The notes beneath the pieces are model-generated. The model did no database searches, was not told the DNA's origin, and saw only the letters and a list, made by a program, of their open reading frames with translations. Positions 13,856-21,567 of a stretch of 64,000 bases of DNA are shown in pieces. How positions within the stretch are numbered: the first letter of the stretch is position 1; each line of letters opens with the position of its first letter. The DNA is from a bacterium (GTDB lineage Bacteria > Patescibacteriota > Microgenomatia > Levybacterales > UBA12049), in assembly GCA_021777565.1 (NCBI GenBank), contig JAJYDJ010000001.1, positions 88,431 through 152,430 of the forward strand, read 5' to 3'. The position numbers and the translations under genes were made by a program.

Positions 13856-13884
13856 ACTATTATCCTGTCTCGACGAGATCATCA

Positions 13885-13920
13885 GCAGGGGCTAGTGAAC
13901 TACGTTGGAAACTTTTATAC
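13885..13920. repeat. Imperfect direct repeat, copy B (gcaggggctagtgAactACgttGgaaac...)
   Basis: Matches 9835-9870. Sits between the uppS operon and the defense/mobile segment. Confidence 0.6.
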
Positions 13921-13947
13921 ACAATATCTCACACTAAATAGTGGACA

Positions 13948-14694
13948 CTAAGGAGTGCTGGTGTTTAGTTCGTTGAATAGTTTGTCCATTTCTGTAACCA
14001 TTTCATTATTTCCTATCTCTTGTGCGTACTTCGATGCTATGCGGATATAGGAAACTATAGCAATGACCAAACCTATTCTTAGTGAGTGCTCAAAATTATC
14101 TTTCCATCGTTTTTTGCTAGAGAATATCTGTGCATCTTCTGATGAGAGGTGGTTCTTCCTGTTTCCTTGTATATATCCTTGAATCAAATCTGCCATCTGT
14201 GTTGTACTAACAATTTTTTCTTTTACCAACTCATCAATCATTCCTTCAACTCCAGTCATAGACCAAGAATTAGCTAGTCGGTCGCTTCTTGTAAAATCTT
14301 TTTTTACGTTCTCAAAGTCATCGATAATTTCTTTCTCAAGGCTGCTATCCATTGCTATACCCAGTTTTTTGAGATATTCAAAGTTGATCCACCTCTCAAC
14401 GTAATAAAATTTGAGAAACTTCATCGCCATATGATCTTTATCCTTGATAACCATGAATTCAATGGAAATCATATCCTCAAATATCCTTCTTGATAAATCG
14501 AGTATTGCATCGCATGAAAGCAAATCATCTTGAAGAAGAGCAATTGAGTGTAGAATAGGATAATTTCTCCTTGCAATTACCATGAGTGTTGCAATGAAGG
14601 GTGGTGTTTTCTCATCAATATCCTCGACTTCCCCAAATTCGTCGGATAAAGAAAGTAATTTGGACAATACTTTTTTTATTTCGTCTGTTCTCAT
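13948..14694 (-). CDS. Hypothetical protein with DUF4145-like 'GNxxxH' motif (possible HEPN-related/Abi-like)
   Basis: 248 aa; 'IQGYIQGNRKNHLS'; located in the AT-rich island. Confidence 0.4.
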   Translation of the reverse strand: MRTDEIKKVLSKLLSLSDEFGEVEDIDEKTPPFIATLMVIARRNYPILHSIALLQDDLLSCDAILDLSRRIFEDMISIEFMVIKDKDHMAMKFLKFYYVERWINFEYLKKLGIAMDSSLEKEIIDDFENVKKDFTRSDRLANSWSMTGVEGMIDELVKEKIVSTTQMADLIQGYIQGNRKNHLSSEDAQIFSSKKRWKDNFEHSLRIGLVIAIVSYIRIASKYAQEIGNNEMVTEMDKLFNELNTSTP

Positions 14695-14757
14695 GAGAAT
14701 AAAATAGCACTTTAATTAAACTCTGTATAGAAAGATGCCCTACGTAGTGTATCTCTA

Positions 14758-15468
14758 TTACCCTATGTTGTCAGGCATCTCATCTTCATATTGCTTTGCA
14801 AGTTCAACATTGTCAATCCAATTAACGGTGAGGTGAATTAGGTCTTTAAGATTATCTAGGTCTTTATCATCCCACTTCCTTACATAGTGCGTCTCATCAT
14901 TTCCTAACCAAGCTGCTCGTCTTGCACATTTCTGAACTTGAGGATCAGCAATGGTGCCAATAACTGTACCAAGAAGGGTACTTTTTATTATTCCAATCTT
15001 TTTTTCTTTTTCAGCTCCATCTATATCAGGGATGAGATAGATCATATAGTCCTTTATGAGAAACTCTAGCGCCTTTCGATATCCTGGACCACATATAAAA
15101 TCGAGATTATTTCCCTCCGCAATTTGCGCTTGATGATATATTTCTTCAAAATCGCTCGAAATTCTATTGATTATTTTACTGAACTTCTCGCGATCTACGA
15201 TTGATAAGATCTCACGGGCATCTAATTCCCATATGTCACCATCGTATACATGATGCCTCGAATAAAATCCAAAGAAATTAAATCCGCACTCATTTCTTGG
15301 ACATTGAAAAACGAGTTGCAACATATTGCTAGTAGCTCTTATAGGAAGACATGCTTTAAAGATTGGTTCAATGCCTTTCTCACACGTAGGACACATATCT
15401 GGAAAACGCTCTATATGTCCTGTTACATGAGATCCATCACTGTCGGTATATTGAACTTTCCTATCCAT
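14758..15468 (-). CDS. Zn-ribbon plus DUF4145-like domain protein
   Basis: N-terminal 'CPTCEKG...CPRNEC'; C-terminal 'YRKALEFLIKDY...AWLGNDETHYVRKW...LIHLTVNWI' resembling DUF4145 (R..lGN..H). Confidence 0.5.
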   Translation of the reverse strand: MDRKVQYTDSDGSHVTGHIERFPDMCPTCEKGIEPIFKACLPIRATSNMLQLVFQCPRNECGFNFFGFYSRHHVYDGDIWELDAREILSIVDREKFSKIINRISSDFEEIYHQAQIAEGNNLDFICGPGYRKALEFLIKDYMIYLIPDIDGAEKEKKIGIIKSTLLGTVIGTIADPQVQKCARRAAWLGNDETHYVRKWDDKDLDNLKDLIHLTVNWIDNVELAKQYEDEMPDNIG

Positions 15469-15564
15469 ATTTCGGCTTCATTGTAGCATAATTCTTCACA
15501 GAACAGTCCAAGTGTGTAAATAAAATATAGTCTTTCATAAATCGTAGTGCTACAATCACCTCAA

Positions 15565-16449
15565 ATGGCAACCACGATAACCCAATCATTCTTAGAATTC
15601 AAAAATAACTTAGAGATAACTGGACTACAAGCAACTACAGTCTCTACAAGGCAAAAAAATGTACAAGATGCGATGCAAGCAAATATGAAAGTAGTAAAGA
15701 CGTTCCTGACGGGATCATATAAACGTCAAACAATGATTGCCCCATTAAATGAGGCAGATATTGATGTATTTGTGGTGCTAGATAATGAGTATTACTATCA
15801 CTACAATAATGGACAGAATGGTGGGCAGGCTGGGTTATTGGATTTAGTTAAAAGGACTTTGCTTCGTACATATACAAGAACTCCAGATATTGCGAGGGAT
15901 GGACAAGCAGTCACTATTCATTTCAGTGATTTTCTGGTTGATGTTGTACCAGGATTTAACAGACATGGAGGTGGATATTTCATTCCTAACTCCATTAAAC
16001 AAGAATGGCTTCGTACAGACCCAACGAAACACATCGAGTTGATCTCTTCTTCAAATATCGCACATGAAAACAAGTTAGTTCCTCTTATAAAGATGATTAA
16101 AGCATGGAATAGGAATACTGGCAGTTTTTTTCGTTCCTTTCATTTGGAAGCATTGGTATTAGAAATTATGCAATTTGTTACTATCACAGACTATCCATCA
16201 GGAGCACGGTACTTCTTTGATAAAGGCAGAACCCTCATTGCTAAGAAAAATCTTGATCCAGCAGGCTATGGTGATGACATTGGTTCATATATAAATAATG
16301 CTGATAAAATCAAAACAGCTGTCACCAAATTTGAAATGGCCTACAATAGGGCTCTAAAAGCTGAGGATTACGCAAGGAGAGGTTATATTTCTGATGCGAT
16401 TGGTCAGTGGAGACTTATCTTTGGAGGTTATTTCCCAACTTATGGCTAA
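15565..16449 (+). CDS. SMODS/CD-NTase-like nucleotidyltransferase (second-messenger synthase candidate)
   Basis: 'GSYKRQTMIAPLNEADIDVFVVL' (GS-x12-DxD), third acidic 'VDVVPGF', Mab21-like 'KAWNRNTGSFFRSFHLEALVLEIM'; TACAAT-N8-ATG start. Confidence 0.65.
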   Translation: MATTITQSFLEFKNNLEITGLQATTVSTRQKNVQDAMQANMKVVKTFLTGSYKRQTMIAPLNEADIDVFVVLDNEYYYHYNNGQNGGQAGLLDLVKRTLLRTYTRTPDIARDGQAVTIHFSDFLVDVVPGFNRHGGGYFIPNSIKQEWLRTDPTKHIELISSSNIAHENKLVPLIKMIKAWNRNTGSFFRSFHLEALVLEIMQFVTITDYPSGARYFFDKGRTLIAKKNLDPAGYGDDIGSYINNADKIKTAVTKFEMAYNRALKAEDYARRGYISDAIGQWRLIFGGYFPTYG

Positions 16450-16993
16450 GAATAAAAAAACAACCGCCACCGAAGTTATCGTTTCAAAGACAAAAGCTGA
16501 AATTATTAAAGAGGCTTTAAGGATTGAAGAGTCAACACGATATGCAGCAAAGAGTCACTATAATGATGGTGCCATGTGGGGATTTTGCCATTTATTGTTG
16601 GGTGTCCCTACAACGGTTCTATCAGCTCTTGTAGCCGTCAAATCTTTTGCACAATTTGATAGTAATCACAATACAGCTGGGATTATTGCATTAGTTGTTG
16701 CAGGGTTAAGTGGACTAATGACTTTTCTTAATCCTAATCAAAAAGCAGCTGTTCACCATAAAGCTGGAAGTGATTATGACTCTTTGAACAATAAAGTTAG
16801 AATCTTTAGAACAATTGATTGCTGGGGCAAAGATGCAGATATTGTTTTAACTGCGAGGTTGAAGGAATTCTCAGAAGAAAAAAGTAAACTACACGCAGAT
16901 AACCCTCAAACATCCTTCATTGGTTATACATTTGCAAAATGGGGCATCAAAAAAGGAGAAGCTGAATTTGTTGTTGATGCTAAAGAGGAATAA
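16442..16993 (+). CDS. Two-transmembrane SLATT-like effector protein
   Basis: The ATG overlaps the SMODS stop by 8 nt; two hydrophobic helices 'WGFCHLLLGVPTTVLSALVAVKSF' and 'AGIIALVVAGLSGLMTFLNP'; about 183 aa. Confidence 0.6.
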   Translation: MAKNKKTTATEVIVSKTKAEIIKEALRIEESTRYAAKSHYNDGAMWGFCHLLLGVPTTVLSALVAVKSFAQFDSNHNTAGIIALVVAGLSGLMTFLNPNQKAAVHHKAGSDYDSLNNKVRIFRTIDCWGKDADIVLTARLKEFSEEKSKLHADNPQTSFIGYTFAKWGIKKGEAEFVVDAKEE

Positions 16994-17160: not shown

Positions 17161-17589
17161 GTGAATATACATTTGTCACCACAAATCAAAAGTTGGGAAG
17201 AAGTATCAGTTTGCACAGATTTCGTGGCTAAAACACCTAACTATGTGCCAAAACTGCTTCATGCCCTAGAATATTCTTGTACGATCCAAGAGGCATGTCT
17301 GTATGCAGGGGTGCCTCGAAGAACCTTGTATAACCATCTCAAAACAAATCCTGAACTTGTAGAATTAGTCCAAAAAGCAAAGCGCTATCCAATCATACGA
17401 GCAAAATGGCGTATGATGGATATTATTGACCATGGAAATGATCGAGATGCAGGGATGATGATTCGCTGGTTCTTAGAAAGACAACAGCCTGAAGTCTATG
17501 GTAAAAAGGGGAGGATGACAGCATCATACCTAGATGCTTCCGTATCAATTTCAGAAATTCATGAGAATCAATTACCCCTTTTCTCCTGA
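17161..17589 (+). CDS. HTH-domain protein (phage terminase small-subunit-like N-terminus?), non-ATG start or 5'-degraded
   Basis: 'IQEACLYAGVPRRTLYNHLKTNPEL' HTH. The first in-frame ATG is about 85 codons in; the ORF track uses GTG. Confidence 0.35.
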   Translation: MNIHLSPQIKSWEEVSVCTDFVAKTPNYVPKLLHALEYSCTIQEACLYAGVPRRTLYNHLKTNPELVELVQKAKRYPIIRAKWRMMDIIDHGNDRDAGMMIRWFLERQQPEVYGKKGRMTASYLDASVSISEIHENQLPLFS

Positions 17590-17616: not shown

Positions 17617-18213
17617 TTACTTCTTGGGCGTGGGTGACACAATACCATCATAGACATATCCTGTCGTATTATCCGTCAAATAGGTCTCTACAATGTCTGT
17701 TTCTTGTACTGTGACACCAAACGCGTTTGGTCCAGATTTAATGCCAAGAACCGTGCCCCAGATTGTTATCGAGTCGCCTTTGTTTATTTGCTTGAGTGAC
17801 ATATCTGGATCTAATTCTATATATGCAACAATTCCATTATCACTAACATTCATCCCAGTGGTATTTCCTTTTGAATCTTGAATAAACTCAGAGACTTTTG
17901 CCGTAAACGCAACTGGTTTTGTTTTGTAAAAATTGGGTTGTTTAGCTAAGTCTGCAAGTGTGACATTCTCCATACGTGCCTTGTCTTCATTTGCTTTTGT
18001 TACCCAGTCTGTCGTAGGCTCTGGTGTGGTACTTATTGCCACTGAAGGGGTATCTGTGACTTGTGTGTCTACTTGCTCGGCTTGTGATATATCGCTTGGC
18101 GTAGTAGAGGAATGGATTATACCTACAATCACTCCAGCAACGACAATAACAACACAGATAATCCCAACAAGAGAAAGTCCATCAAAGATAATCTTTGGTT
18201 TTTGATTTGCCAT
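17617..18213 (-). CDS. Membrane-anchored extracytoplasmic protein
   Basis: Strong SD (AAAGGAGGTGAACAT-ATG); N-terminal TM 'IIFDGLSLVGIICVVIVVAGVIVGII' then a Thr/Pro-rich linker. Confidence 0.55.
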   Translation of the reverse strand: MANQKPKIIFDGLSLVGIICVVIVVAGVIVGIIHSSTTPSDISQAEQVDTQVTDTPSVAISTTPEPTTDWVTKANEDKARMENVTLADLAKQPNFYKTKPVAFTAKVSEFIQDSKGNTTGMNVSDNGIVAYIELDPDMSLKQINKGDSITIWGTVLGIKSGPNAFGVTVQETDIVETYLTDNTTGYVYDGIVSPTPKK

Positions 18214-18638
18214 ATGTTCACCTCCTTTCATATGCGCTGTATTGGCTGCAAATAAGTTATTGAGGGAACACAAAAAGCTCCCCCCAGCGATGGATTGCTC
18301 CACCTGCCGTAGTTTCCCACGACAACCTCAACAGCGCTCTGGAGAGAGCTTACTGCTGTTGAGGTTTTGCAACCATGCCTGTCAGAGTGACAAGTTTAGG
18401 TCGATAACTTGTACATGAATTGTACCATAAAGTGGAGTATACAGAAATGGACTTAGCCATAAATTTGAGTATTTTGATCAGACGGCACTTGTGCCGTCTG
18501 CACGATTAGCCACGAAAAAAAAATCATGCAACTGCCCTATAGTAAGCATCTTTGAAGCTAAGGGTAAAAAAAGTTAGTAAAGAAACTAATCCTCATATAT
18601 CTTTGTACTAGATCCAATAAATTCTTATTGGTGTGAAG

Positions 18639-18836
18639 ATGTATATGAAATCTAAATTTGTTTCTCACGGTAACACTGCTTGGCTTAATCCTTATCATGC
18701 TCTTCGCGTTAAAGAAGTATTTGAAAAAAAATATAAAAAGAGGTTATCAGATGAAGAAGTTACTGAAATAGCAAAAAATCTTGTAGGCATGATGGAGATT
18801 ATTTTTAGGATAAATGTTTATGAAAAATGCATATAA
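18639..18836 (+). CDS. Small hypothetical protein
   Basis: About 65-aa ORF in the mobile segment. Confidence 0.3.
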   Translation: MYMKSKFVSHGNTAWLNPYHALRVKEVFEKKYKKRLSDEEVTEIAKNLVGMMEIIFRINVYEKCI

Positions 18837-19053
18837 AACAAAAGATCTTGCAGAGGCTAGCTTTCTGCTTGCAAATGGTAAAAAATTACTCCTCCTTGAA
18901 AGAGATGGTAGAGTTTGCTGGTTTGTCTACCCTGATCGAACAGAGTGTGAAACTTTAGTAAGTTCCTTCTGGTTCAATGATGCTGTTGTTAATGCTAAGA
19001 ATTTCTATGATGCTATCCAGATGCTAAAAGGGCGTATTTTTTCACAAATTTAA
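18814..19053 (+). CDS. Small phage-like hypothetical protein
   Basis: 79 aa; overlaps upstream ORF end; 'ASFLLANGKKLLLLERDGRVCWFVY' pattern seen in small phage/CPR proteins (recollection, unverified). Confidence 0.35.
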   Translation: MFMKNAYKTKDLAEASFLLANGKKLLLLERDGRVCWFVYPDRTECETLVSSFWFNDAVVNAKNFYDAIQMLKGRIFSQI

Positions 19054-19069
19054 TATTTTTGACTTGAAT

Positions 19070-19432
19070 ATGAAAGATGTAAATGAAATATTAAAAACAC
19101 TACCAGTTAACAGTAGTAAAGGCGATAAGCCTACAGTTAACAGTAATACAGTTAACTGTAGTGATAAAAATTTTACTCAAAAGCTTGAAGACTTACTTCA
19201 GGAAGAAAATTTAGACAGCGAAGGAAAAGCGCTCTTATTTGCTCAAGAATTAGACGACAAGAAGAGTCTTGCTTGGTATAAGTTACTTATTAGAGAACAT
19301 GATAATACAAAGCTATTTGAGGCTCTTTCGTATGTTAAACATGCATATCGTGAAGGGAAAATTAAAACCACAAGAGCACACTATTTTAGGGGTATTTTAA
19401 TTAGATGGAAATTTAAGGTAAAATTTTCCTAA
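19070..19432 (+). CDS. Hypothetical protein
   Basis: ATG at 19070 (ORF-track TTG at 19064); ends 2 nt before the recombinase start. Confidence 0.35.
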   Translation: MKDVNEILKTLPVNSSKGDKPTVNSNTVNCSDKNFTQKLEDLLQEENLDSEGKALLFAQELDDKKSLAWYKLLIREHDNTKLFEALSYVKHAYREGKIKTTRAHYFRGILIRWKFKVKFS

Positions 19433-19433
19433 T

Positions 19434-20960
19434 ATGCTTCGCTATTTTATTTATTGTCGTAAGTCTTCTGAAGCGAGGGATCGGCAGGCACTCTCTATTG
19501 AAGCACAGAGAAGAGAGTTATCAGAATACGCCGAACGAAATAATTTGAAGGTTGTACAGATATTTGAAGAATCACAGTCTGCATATAAGTTAGGTCGTCC
19601 GATCTTCGATAAAATGATGAAAATGTGTGGGGAAGGATTGGCGAACGGAATACTCACTTGGAAGCCCGACAGACTCGCTAGAAACGCCCTAGACGGTGGT
19701 AAAGTCATTCAAGCACTAGATGATAAGGTTCTGCAAGAAATACGCACTCCATACGAAATATTTAAGCAAGAAGATAATCGTATGATGCTCTACGTGTTAT
19801 TTGGTATGTCCAATGACTTCTCACGACAAATTAGTGCAAATGTGAAGCGCGGGAATAGACAGAAGTATGTGAGAGGAGAATTCCTCGGAAAAGCTCCGGT
19901 AGGATATGTAAATGCTCAAATTGGTAACTCTCGTAATATCGTTCCAGACCCCGCAAAAGCCCCACTGGTAAGAAAACTGTTTGAGGAGTACTCGACAGGG
20001 AAATATTCAGTGATGCAAATTCTTACCATGGCACATGATCTCAATCTCACGTCTGTTTTTGGGAATAAATTTGTCAAAAGTGAGATGTATAGAGTCCTTA
20101 AATGTCCTGTCTATTACGGGGTATTTCAACATGGAGGAGAATTTCATAAAGGAAGCTATGAACCACTCATTTCTAAAGAATTATATAATAAAGTGCAAGA
20201 TGTTCTGGCAAATAGAAGTAAGCCGAAAAAACAAGATTGGATACATCCTTACATCGGCCTTATCAAATGTAAAAACTGTGGATGTGCGATCACTTGTACA
20301 ACAAAAGTGAAGCGATATAAACGCACAAATCGCACCGCTTCTTATACCTATTACCATTGTACAAAAAGAAGAGGCCCTTGTGACCAGTCAGCTGTTACCG
20401 AGAGTGAACTAGAGCGAATGCTTTATGAGCAAGTCGCTCAAATACATATTGATAAAGAGATTTGGGATTTAGGAGTGGAGTTATTAAAAGCAAAACATTC
20501 AAATGAATTTCAAGAGCATGAAAAACTAAAATTTAGTTTGACATTCGAAATTGAGAAGTTAGATAAGTGTTTAGAAAAACTTCTGACCATGCGTTTGAAT
20601 GAAGAGATTACGGCAAGTGAGTATGCAGATCAGAAGAAAGTGTTTATCGATAAAAGATTAGAGCTTCAGGAAAAAATGAATGACAGAGATCATTCAACCT
20701 CAAATTGGTTGGAACTCGCTGAAAACTTCTTTGAGACGGCATATCACGCACGAGAGGTCATGGAAAGTGATGATATGGATGCAAAGAGGGAATTAGTGCA
20801 AACTGTCGGTTGGAACCTCTTTTTAGACAATCAAAAACTCGAATTTAGCTTCAAAAAACCGTATGATGTACTACTCGTACCTGAAATAAAGGATAACGTG
20901 CAGGGGTGGAGGGAATCGAACCCCCAGTCGCGGTTTTGGAGACCGCTGGTTTACCGTTAA
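19434..20960 (+). CDS. Large serine recombinase (resolvase/invertase N-domain, recombinase domain, Zn-ribbon)
   Basis: 'YCRKSSEARDRQALSIEAQ' catalytic Ser region, 'DRLARN', Cys-rich 'CKNCGC...YYHC' zinc ribbon. The 3' end overlaps tRNA-Trp. Confidence 0.85.
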   Translation: MLRYFIYCRKSSEARDRQALSIEAQRRELSEYAERNNLKVVQIFEESQSAYKLGRPIFDKMMKMCGEGLANGILTWKPDRLARNALDGGKVIQALDDKVLQEIRTPYEIFKQEDNRMMLYVLFGMSNDFSRQISANVKRGNRQKYVRGEFLGKAPVGYVNAQIGNSRNIVPDPAKAPLVRKLFEEYSTGKYSVMQILTMAHDLNLTSVFGNKFVKSEMYRVLKCPVYYGVFQHGGEFHKGSYEPLISKELYNKVQDVLANRSKPKKQDWIHPYIGLIKCKNCGCAITCTTKVKRYKRTNRTASYTYYHCTKRRGPCDQSAVTESELERMLYEQVAQIHIDKEIWDLGVELLKAKHSNEFQEHEKLKFSLTFEIEKLDKCLEKLLTMRLNEEITASEYADQKKVFIDKRLELQEKMNDRDHSTSNWLELAENFFETAYHAREVMESDDMDAKRELVQTVGWNLFLDNQKLEFSFKKPYDVLLVPEIKDNVQGWRESNPQSRFWRPLVYR

Positions 20961-20972
20961 CCGACACCCCCG
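20902..20972 (-). tRNA. tRNA-Trp (anticodon CCA)
   Basis: Minus-strand cloverleaf: acceptor GGGGGTG/CACCCCT, anticodon stem GCGGT/ACCGC, loop CTCCAAA, T-loop TTCGATT; no encoded CCA. Confidence 0.8.
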
Positions 20973-21284: not shown

Positions 21285-21359
21285 GCCGACATAGCTCAGC
21301 GGTAGAGCAGCTGTTTTGTAAACAGCAGGTCATCAGTCCGAATCTGATTGTCGGCTCCA
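21285..21359 (+). tRNA. tRNA-Thr (anticodon TGT)
   Basis: Acceptor GCCGACA/TGTCGGC, anticodon stem GCTGT/ACAGC, loop TTTGTAA, T-loop TCCGAAT, encoded CCA. Confidence 0.85.
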
Positions 21360-21385
21360 ATCTGTTATAATGTTCCATACGTAAT

Positions 21386-21473
21386 GCTGAGTTGGCGGAG
21401 CAGTCAATCGCACCTGACTGTAGATCAGGCGACCGGAAGGTCTACGGGAGTGCAAATCTCTCACTCAGCACCA
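21386..21473 (+). tRNA. tRNA-Tyr (anticodon GTA), class II with long variable arm
   Basis: Acceptor GCTGAGT/ACTCAGC, anticodon stem CCTGA/TCAGG, loop CTGTAGA, 16-nt variable arm, encoded ACCA. Confidence 0.85.
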
Positions 21474-21475
21474 AT

Positions 21476-21547
21476 GCCGATGTGGCTCAGTGGTAGAGCA
21501 TCTTCTTGGTAAGAAGAAGGTCATGGGTCCGATTCCCATCATCGGCT
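21476..21547 (+). tRNA. tRNA-Thr (anticodon GGT)
   Basis: Acceptor GCCGATG/CATCGGC, anticodon stem TCTTC/GAAGA, loop TTGGTAA, T-loop TCCGATT; CCA not encoded. Confidence 0.85.
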
Positions 21548-21567
21548 CTGCGAGAATCACGAAAATA

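Follow-up and report, generated by a model that had tools for sequence, protein, structure and literature searches.

What do two adjacent open reading frames (ORFs) do beside a cyclic-oligonucleotide-based antiphage signalling system (CBASS) in a Levybacterales bacterium, and do they act with each other, with the CBASS, or alone? The two genes, which we call ORF B (14758–15468, minus strand, 236 aa) and ORF A (13948–14694, minus strand, 248 aa), lie in a 64,000-nucleotide stretch of the GenBank assembly GCA_021777565.1 (contig JAJYDJ010000001.1, positions 88,431 to 152,430 of the forward strand), the whole of which we refer to as the window. An original prediction, made from the letters of the sequence, described A and B as a divergently transcribed pair of DUF4145-like proteins, one of them with an N-terminal zinc ribbon, that could be either an independent defence pair of the abortive-infection or ribonuclease (RNase) type, or accessory or sensor parts of the adjacent nucleotidyltransferase system. 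The ORF listing bears out both ORFs, together with their strands, their coordinates and the motifs quoted from them. On balance, we favour the reading that A and B are independent, stand-alone cargo genes that share a serine-recombinase island with a type I CBASS, and that B is probably similar to RAZR, a defence protein of Escherichia coli.

Family membership of ORF B

The sequence of B contains the cysteine motifs CPTC (C26 and C29) and CPRNEC (C56 and C61), as well as the stretches YRKALEFLIKDY, AWLGNDETHYVRKW and LIHLTVNWI. None of the Pfam, NCBIfam or PADLOC models matches B; the sole match in direct family scans is phrog_1305, which covers the full length of the protein (4.3e-31). Nonetheless, relatives of B are numerous: 4307 homologs were found in a set of 5.8 billion proteins, across many phyla, and NCBI names some of them ‘DUF4145 domain-containing protein’. 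The DUF4145 model itself, PF13643, is matched by 20 of 39 aligned close relatives of B, with a best E value of 6e-7.

The quoted motifs of B are not chance features, because the four cysteines and the residues N190, D191 and H194 are conserved across 152 family members. Each cysteine of the CPxC...CPxxxC arrangement is kept in 151–152 of the 152, which confirms the N-terminal zinc ribbon of the original prediction, and N190, D191 and H194 are found in all of them. Four further residues of the HEPN domain, R131, E135, K139 and D140, are invariant or nearly so (150–152 of 152), and position 197 is R or K in 142 members (93%); R184 is present in only 112 (74%), and position 186 is A, T, V or S in every member and never basic. 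In this family the sensor domain varies and the effector domain is conserved, the mean pairwise identity being 25–31% in the zinc ribbon versus 48–55% in the HEPN part. In B, the sensor-like zinc ribbon occupies residues ~1–87 (15208–15468, minus strand) and the DUF4145-type HEPN domain residues ~98–230 (14779–15177, minus strand). The signature motif WLGNDETHYVRKW at residues 187–199 (14872–14910, minus strand) includes H194, the predicted catalytic His. DUF4145 is an established HEPN family, as had been supposed, and its fusion to zinc ribbons was noted already in 2013 (PMC3710099). At the level of the family, these comparisons support the assignment of B as a protein with a zinc ribbon and a DUF4145-type HEPN domain.

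The predicted structure of B is divided in the same manner. The AlphaFold2 (AF2) model (mean predicted local distance difference test score, pLDDT, of 89) has a six-stranded N-terminal domain, beta-rich over residues 3–87, and a helical C-terminal domain. A Foldseek search of the PDB with this model finds the HEPN-domain structures 4nqf, 1wol and 2q00 with probabilities of 0.80–0.99 and weak E values, while the search of BFVD yields one real relative, U3PE05. The similarity of the zinc ribbon to ribbons of the TFIIS/RPC10 type is weak and non-significant.

Relationship of ORF B to RAZR

RAZR, also named PD-T7-4 (E. coli UMB1727, RRL46918.1; PDB 9Y9C and 9Y6U; Zhang et al. Nature 2026, PMC13017515; Vassallo et al. 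2022, PMC9519451), is an E. coli protein of 219 aa, in which a Cys4 zinc ribbon at the N-terminus precedes a DUF4145/HEPN RNase domain at the C-terminus (PMC13017515; PMC9519451). It functions as a single gene and forms a 24-mer around ring-shaped phage proteins, either the portal or the Erf-like Gp77; activated RAZR cleaves single-stranded RNA non-specifically, which aborts the infection (PMC13017515). Defence requires both R146 and H154 (Arg-x7-His), and specificity is set by the variable zinc-ribbon domain, which binds proteins, not DNA (PMC13017515).

We compared the B family, as profile A4, with a RAZR-like set, A5, composed of eight plasmid proteins gathered with a 62-residue fragment of RAZR chain 9Y9C_OA; a hand-written DUF4145-like probe served only to retrieve this fragment from the PDB sequences and is not evidence. 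All eight members of the set are strong DUF4145 matches. The two profiles are related by hhalign with a probability of 90% and an E value of 1.6e-6, over 146 columns that extend from the second zinc knuckle through the C-terminus, and the score of 48 compares with 11–19 for reversed-profile controls. The alignment sets GNDETH of B opposite GNNAVH of RAZR, and H194 is therefore placed as the equivalent of the catalytic His.

B and RAZR are alike in their overall plan, in that each is a single protein of ~220–240 aa in which a linker joins a Cys4 zinc ribbon to a DUF4145-type HEPN domain at the C-terminus, and each is a stand-alone gene on mobile elements with a zinc ribbon that is more variable than the HEPN domain. 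They share the GNxxxH motif with its invariant His, and a conserved Arg in the first HEPN helix (R131 in B, R117 in the RAZR-like set). B differs from RAZR in that the Arg of RxxGNxxxH is replaced by A, T, V or S, with R184 and R/K197 found instead; in the invariant Asp that follows the Asn (NDETHY); in an insertion of ~14 residues in the HEPN domain; and in the abundance of its clade in prophages (PHROG 1305). By profile comparison, then, B appears as a distant RAZR homolog of the same architecture, from a separate clade whose active-site motif is altered. We call this clade divergent because neither PADLOC nor HMMER provides a link to RAZR.

Several results weigh against grouping B with RAZR. 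First, position 186 of B, opposite which the catalytic Arg of RAZR (R146) is aligned, is neither Arg nor Lys in any family member, and the nearest Arg in B, R184, is found two residues before it; the lack of the canonical Arg is a genuine reservation about a RAZR-like RNase. Second, B itself has no Pfam DUF4145 match even at E ≤10, such that the DUF4145 assignment made in the original prediction stands for the family, through PF13643 and hhalign, and not for the single sequence. Third, phmmer and hmmsearch with B, A1 and A4 found nothing at E ≤10 in RAZR chain 9Y9C_OA, which is in the PDB library, and returned just non-significant zinc-finger noise from the PDB sequences as a whole; likewise, no member of the B family is matched by the PADLOC models of known systems. 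Finally, 9Y9C and 9Y6U are absent from the 50 best PDB hits of Foldseek for B, and the zinc ribbon of B is ~20 residues longer than that of RAZR.

Other proteins that bear HEPN domains also act in defence. DS-38 (DefensePredictor), a validated E. coli defence protein, can be likened to B by its description as a protein with HEPN and zinc-finger domains, the zinc finger being unlike the one in PD-T7-4 (bioRxiv 10.1101/2025.01.08.631726); thus, several clades of zinc-finger HEPN proteins act in defence. In a blastn comparison, a Pseudomonas B homolog had no match in E. coli genomes. DUF4145-type HEPN effectors are also found in the abortive-infection or anti-mobile-element proteins BxaP (PMC10799925) and Ishtar1 (bioRxiv 10.64898/2026.07.06.735840), and DUF4145 is fused to restriction endonuclease or helicase domains as well (PMC3710099). 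All of these share with B the use of a DUF4145-type HEPN module as effector, but they have other partner domains (HEAT-like, beta-rich C-terminal, restriction endonuclease or helicase) in another order, and the zinc ribbon at the N-terminus of B is found in none of them.

Genomic distribution and putative function of ORF B

B homologs are abundant in prophages and phages, with 495 matches in the viral contigs of IMG/VR and 43 phage records. From 465 confirmed matches in genomes and 495 in viral contigs we took 80 loci each (160 in all), and we found no recurrent partner gene for B in 156 loci. The commonest neighbour, a cI/Cro-type helix-turn-helix (HTH) protein, occurs in 40 loci, often in divergent orientation; prophage neighbours also include genes for terminase, portal and integrase. 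In genomes, the neighbours are heterogeneous and include resolvases and a few defence genes (mad2, methyltransferases, Old/GajA-like ATPases). Genes of the B type are stand-alone cargo of prophages and mobile elements, and this distribution fits a single gene that acts in superinfection or in abortive infection.

Could B instead serve prophages as a DNA-binding or regulatory protein with a zinc ribbon, in which the HEPN-like part is a catalytically dead scaffold? The label of phrog_1305 is ‘DNA binding protein’, repeated in RefSeq phage records, and both the frequent cI/Cro-type neighbours and the absence of the canonical RAZR Arg at the aligned position are in line with this idea. However, the PHROG label is a prediction only, and the zinc ribbon of RAZR has protein partners. 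Moreover, members from different phyla all keep the pattern N190-D191-x2-H194-Y-x-R/K along with R131, E135, K139 and D140, a conservation that speaks for an active site. Prophage superinfection-immunity genes typically sit beside the repressor, and the position of B homologs next to a repressor gene fits such genes. A DNA-binding role for B is, in our estimation, decidedly unlikely.

We consider an independent defence role of the abortive-infection or RNase type to be the best reading for B. In the mechanism that we propose, the variable Cys4 zinc ribbon at the N-terminus would sense a phage protein, as RAZR does with ring-shaped portal or Erf-like triggers. Binding of the trigger would then drive oligomerisation of the conserved DUF4145-type HEPN domain, and this domain would cleave cellular and phage RNA non-specifically, so that the infection would be aborted. 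We infer the RNase activity of B, the nature of its trigger and the abortive-infection outcome by analogy with RAZR.

Family membership and neighbours of ORF A

ORF A had been described as a second DUF4145-like protein, based on its GNRKNH motif (residues 177–182), and this assignment did not hold: A belongs with the DUF5677 family. The match of A itself to PF18928 (DUF5677) spans residues 63–159 with an E value of 3.4e-5, and its 24.4 bits fall below the gathering threshold of 27.1. A is thus unlike the Pfam family in its own score, but like it in its relatives, since all 47 aligned relatives match PF18928 (best E value 3.8e-15) and precomputed PF18928 matches exist for close A homologs; none of the 47 matches a DUF4145 or HEPN model. 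The family is small, with ~10 close homologs in 5.8 billion proteins and 103 representative clusters in 1.84 billion. The AF2 model of A is all-helical and confident (pLDDT 95, predicted template modelling score 0.90), and a Foldseek search of the PDB returned no meaningful fold match, only generic helical bundles. Serpin hits to the A profile (E ~1e-3) were spurious, serpins being alpha/beta proteins and A all-alpha.

The GNRKNH motif of A is not a chance feature, because H182 is invariant in the 47 relatives, as are R69 and E73. Y174 is nearly invariant in this set, and Y174, G177, N178 and K180 are invariant among the 12 closest relatives. The motif in its extended form, YIQGNRKNH (residues 174–182; 14149–14175, minus strand), follows a YxxGNxxxH pattern that lines up with RxxGNxxxH of the RAZR-like DUF4145 proteins, with Tyr in place of Arg. 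An hhalign comparison of the A profile (A3) with the RAZR-like set is weak (score 29.5, E 1.4e-3, probability 17%; reversed controls 13), and A3 has no hhalign match to the B family. The pattern offers a hint that A may be remotely related to HEPN proteins, which we treat as a lead only. The proposal that R69 and E73 of A correspond to the R-x3-E helix of DUF4145 was rejected, as the hhalign alignment gave no support for it.

Is A a housekeeping or structural helical protein that has no role in defence and lies on the island by chance? This would agree with the absence of any fold or family link to an enzyme and with the lack of A relatives among viral contigs, where none was found. Also weighing against a defence role, the sole DUF5677 gene tested in Enterococcus faecalis gave no protection, in that it is not listed as protective (PMC12632615). 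On the other side, the A family is rare and patchy and has the invariant residues R69, E73 and H182, and its members reside in mobile surroundings: in 35 loci of A relatives, the neighbours are restriction-modification genes of the MmeI, Eco57I, TaqI or Mrr type, integrases, the Tn7-like TniQ/TniB, a reverse transcriptase and large serine recombinases. A housekeeping function is rather unlikely in view of both sides. We tentatively take A to be a one-gene defence or toxin protein, distinct from B, with a highly divergent module of the DUF4145/HEPN type as its C-terminal half; our confidence in this reading is low.

In two unrelated metagenomic contigs (L161, 3002–8439, and L204, 7896–11586), A relatives lie 0.1–1.4 kb upstream of large serine recombinases, and the relative in L161 also adjoins a restriction-modification enzyme of the MmeI type. 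This arrangement echoes both the layout of the window and a preprint in which DUF5677 was reported to be enriched, in defence contexts, next to serine recombinases (PMC12632615).

The peculiarities of B and A might be brought together in one proposal, in which the B clade, with at least 4,300 protein clusters and present here in an organism with a contig of ~0.95 Mb, consists of mechanistically distinct zinc-ribbon HEPN sensors and DUF5677 is a divergent HEPN-like effector family. The active site of B may have been re-wired, with the part of the RAZR Arg taken over by R/K197, R131 or D191 acting together with H194; the enlarged zinc ribbon may recognise a different class of phage trigger; and DUF5677 may be an unrecognised, very divergent family of HEPN-like effectors marked by YxxGNxxxH. 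Taken jointly, we think of this proposal as speculative and rather doubtful.

Relationship of A and B to each other and to the CBASS

One alternative is that A and B are a dedicated two-gene system, such as a toxin-antitoxin or a sensor-effector pair, co-transcribed from the promoter shared with the CBASS operon. The arrangement in the window has features that suit such a system: A follows B on the same strand at a distance of 63 nt, no terminator-like site was found between them, and the GNxxxH motif is common to both. But none of 156 loci with B homologs contains an A relative, and none of 35 loci with A relatives contains a B-like or RAZR-like protein; these counts rest on 160 and 35 loci. 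Only contigs of the same organism showed A and B side by side. Furthermore, the families are far apart in size (4307 hits versus ~10 close hits or 103 representative clusters), and RAZR works as one gene (PMC13017515). We therefore regard a dedicated A and B system as very improbable.

The alternative that A, B or both are accessory, sensor or regulatory parts of the adjoining CBASS, analogous to Cap proteins, starts from the location of all these genes in one island and from the divergent intergenic region (15469–15546, 78 nt) that B shares with the gene encoding the CD-NTase (cGAS/DncV-like nucleotidyltransferase). The length of this region had been given correctly, being exactly 78 nt from the B start at 15468 to the GTG start of the SMODS gene at 15547, and it would be 96 nt if ATG 15565 is the true start; one public gene call places the cyclase start at ATG 15565 (294 aa). 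A minus-strand promoter-like site is present within the gap at 15520–15491, and scans for promoters and terminators gave sites at no more than the expectation from shuffled sequence. The description of A and B as divergent applies only with respect to the SMODS gene, because the two ORFs are co-directional with each other.

The two genes to the right of this gap encode a CD-NTase (SMODS) protein (15547–16449, plus strand; PF18144, 1e-26; PADLOC Cyclase PDLC00823, 5e-102) and a two-transmembrane (2TM)/SLATT effector (16394–16993, plus strand; PADLOC 2TM effector PDLC00712, 1.4e-51; SLATT_4, 1.6e-3). Their ORFs, as listed, overlap by 56 nt (16394–16449). By the PADLOC models, the cyclase and the 2TM effector are already a complete type I CBASS. 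The neighbourhoods of homologs likewise speak against accessory parts: SMODS and SLATT relatives are absent from all 156 loci with B homologs, SMODS/CD-NTase and SLATT genes from all 35 loci with A relatives, and PADLOC and Pfam scans of 149 flanking proteins revealed no recurrent cyclase. A role of A or B within the CBASS is accordingly the least probable of the explanations considered here, and the suggestion of accessory or sensor parts for the nucleotidyltransferase system falls away.

Since there is no co-occurrence in the 156 and 35 loci, A and B are neither a conserved pair nor CBASS accessories. The apparent pair arises by accident from the make-up of the island, and the CBASS includes neither of the two. 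The independent defence pair that was originally put forward is thus retained in part: such a role is the best reading for B, while the pairing with A is not.

Organization of the island

The genes lie within a low-GC stretch (0.36–0.40), consistent with the AT-rich island that had been described; the stretch extends from ~10 kb to 21 kb, however, and takes in upstream envelope-biosynthesis genes as well. The left flank of the island is the housekeeping gene uppS, and rightward of the CBASS come genes for a terS-like HTH protein, a membrane or Sie-like protein and a DUF5659 protein, followed by a large serine recombinase (19434–20960, plus strand; Resolvase, Recombinase and Zn_ribbon_recom domains). 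The region between uppS and the tRNA-Trp gene (20900–20971, minus strand) looks like an integrative island of ~7 kb with defence cargo. The 3′ end of the recombinase ORF overlaps tRNA-Trp by 61 nt, which suggests integration at or into the tRNA gene. A search at the left end of the island (near 13856–13947) found neither attachment (att)-type repeats nor a duplicated tRNA-Trp fragment, so the limits given for the island are approximate.

Several other features of the island and its right border were observed. The terminase-small-subunit-like HTH protein (17161–17589, plus strand) matches phrog_4102 (1.6e-11) and, below threshold, Sf6_terminase (2e-5). The island has this terS-like gene and the recombinase without other phage structural genes, and it is reminiscent of a phage satellite or an element like the phage-inducible chromosomal islands (PICI) that bears defence cargo. 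A strong match to the LOOT RNA family (Rfam RF03000; 82.6 bits versus a gathering score of 46.4) lies inside the island at 18289–18402 on the minus strand, just upstream of the membrane or Sie-like ORF (17617–18303, minus strand). In the region directly upstream of the serine recombinase are the gene for the DUF5659 protein (9e-9; 18814–19053, plus strand) and a 122-aa ORF with no family match (19064–19432, plus strand), either of which may be an excision or regulatory gene of the element. Immediately to the right of the island is a cluster of tRNA-Thr(tgt), tRNA-Tyr and tRNA-Thr(ggt) genes (21285–21548, plus strand), in which the two tRNA-Thr genes are 76% identical.

Implications

As A and B are neither a pair nor parts of the CBASS, the locus reads as a mosaic defence island and not as a new multi-gene system. 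B is a variant, divergent and at present without annotation, of a defence protein that was itself characterised recently, and it is located beside a gene of an orphan family on a mobile island. The characterisation of RAZR dates only from 2026 and was made with two enterobacterial proteins that are close relatives, and B points to a large sister clade that present defence finders miss, as its members have no PADLOC match and often no Pfam match. This clade retains the variable zinc-ribbon sensor and the conserved HEPN effector, but without the Arg that is essential in RAZR, and it bears both on the generality of ring-scaffolded activation and on the flexibility of the HEPN active site.

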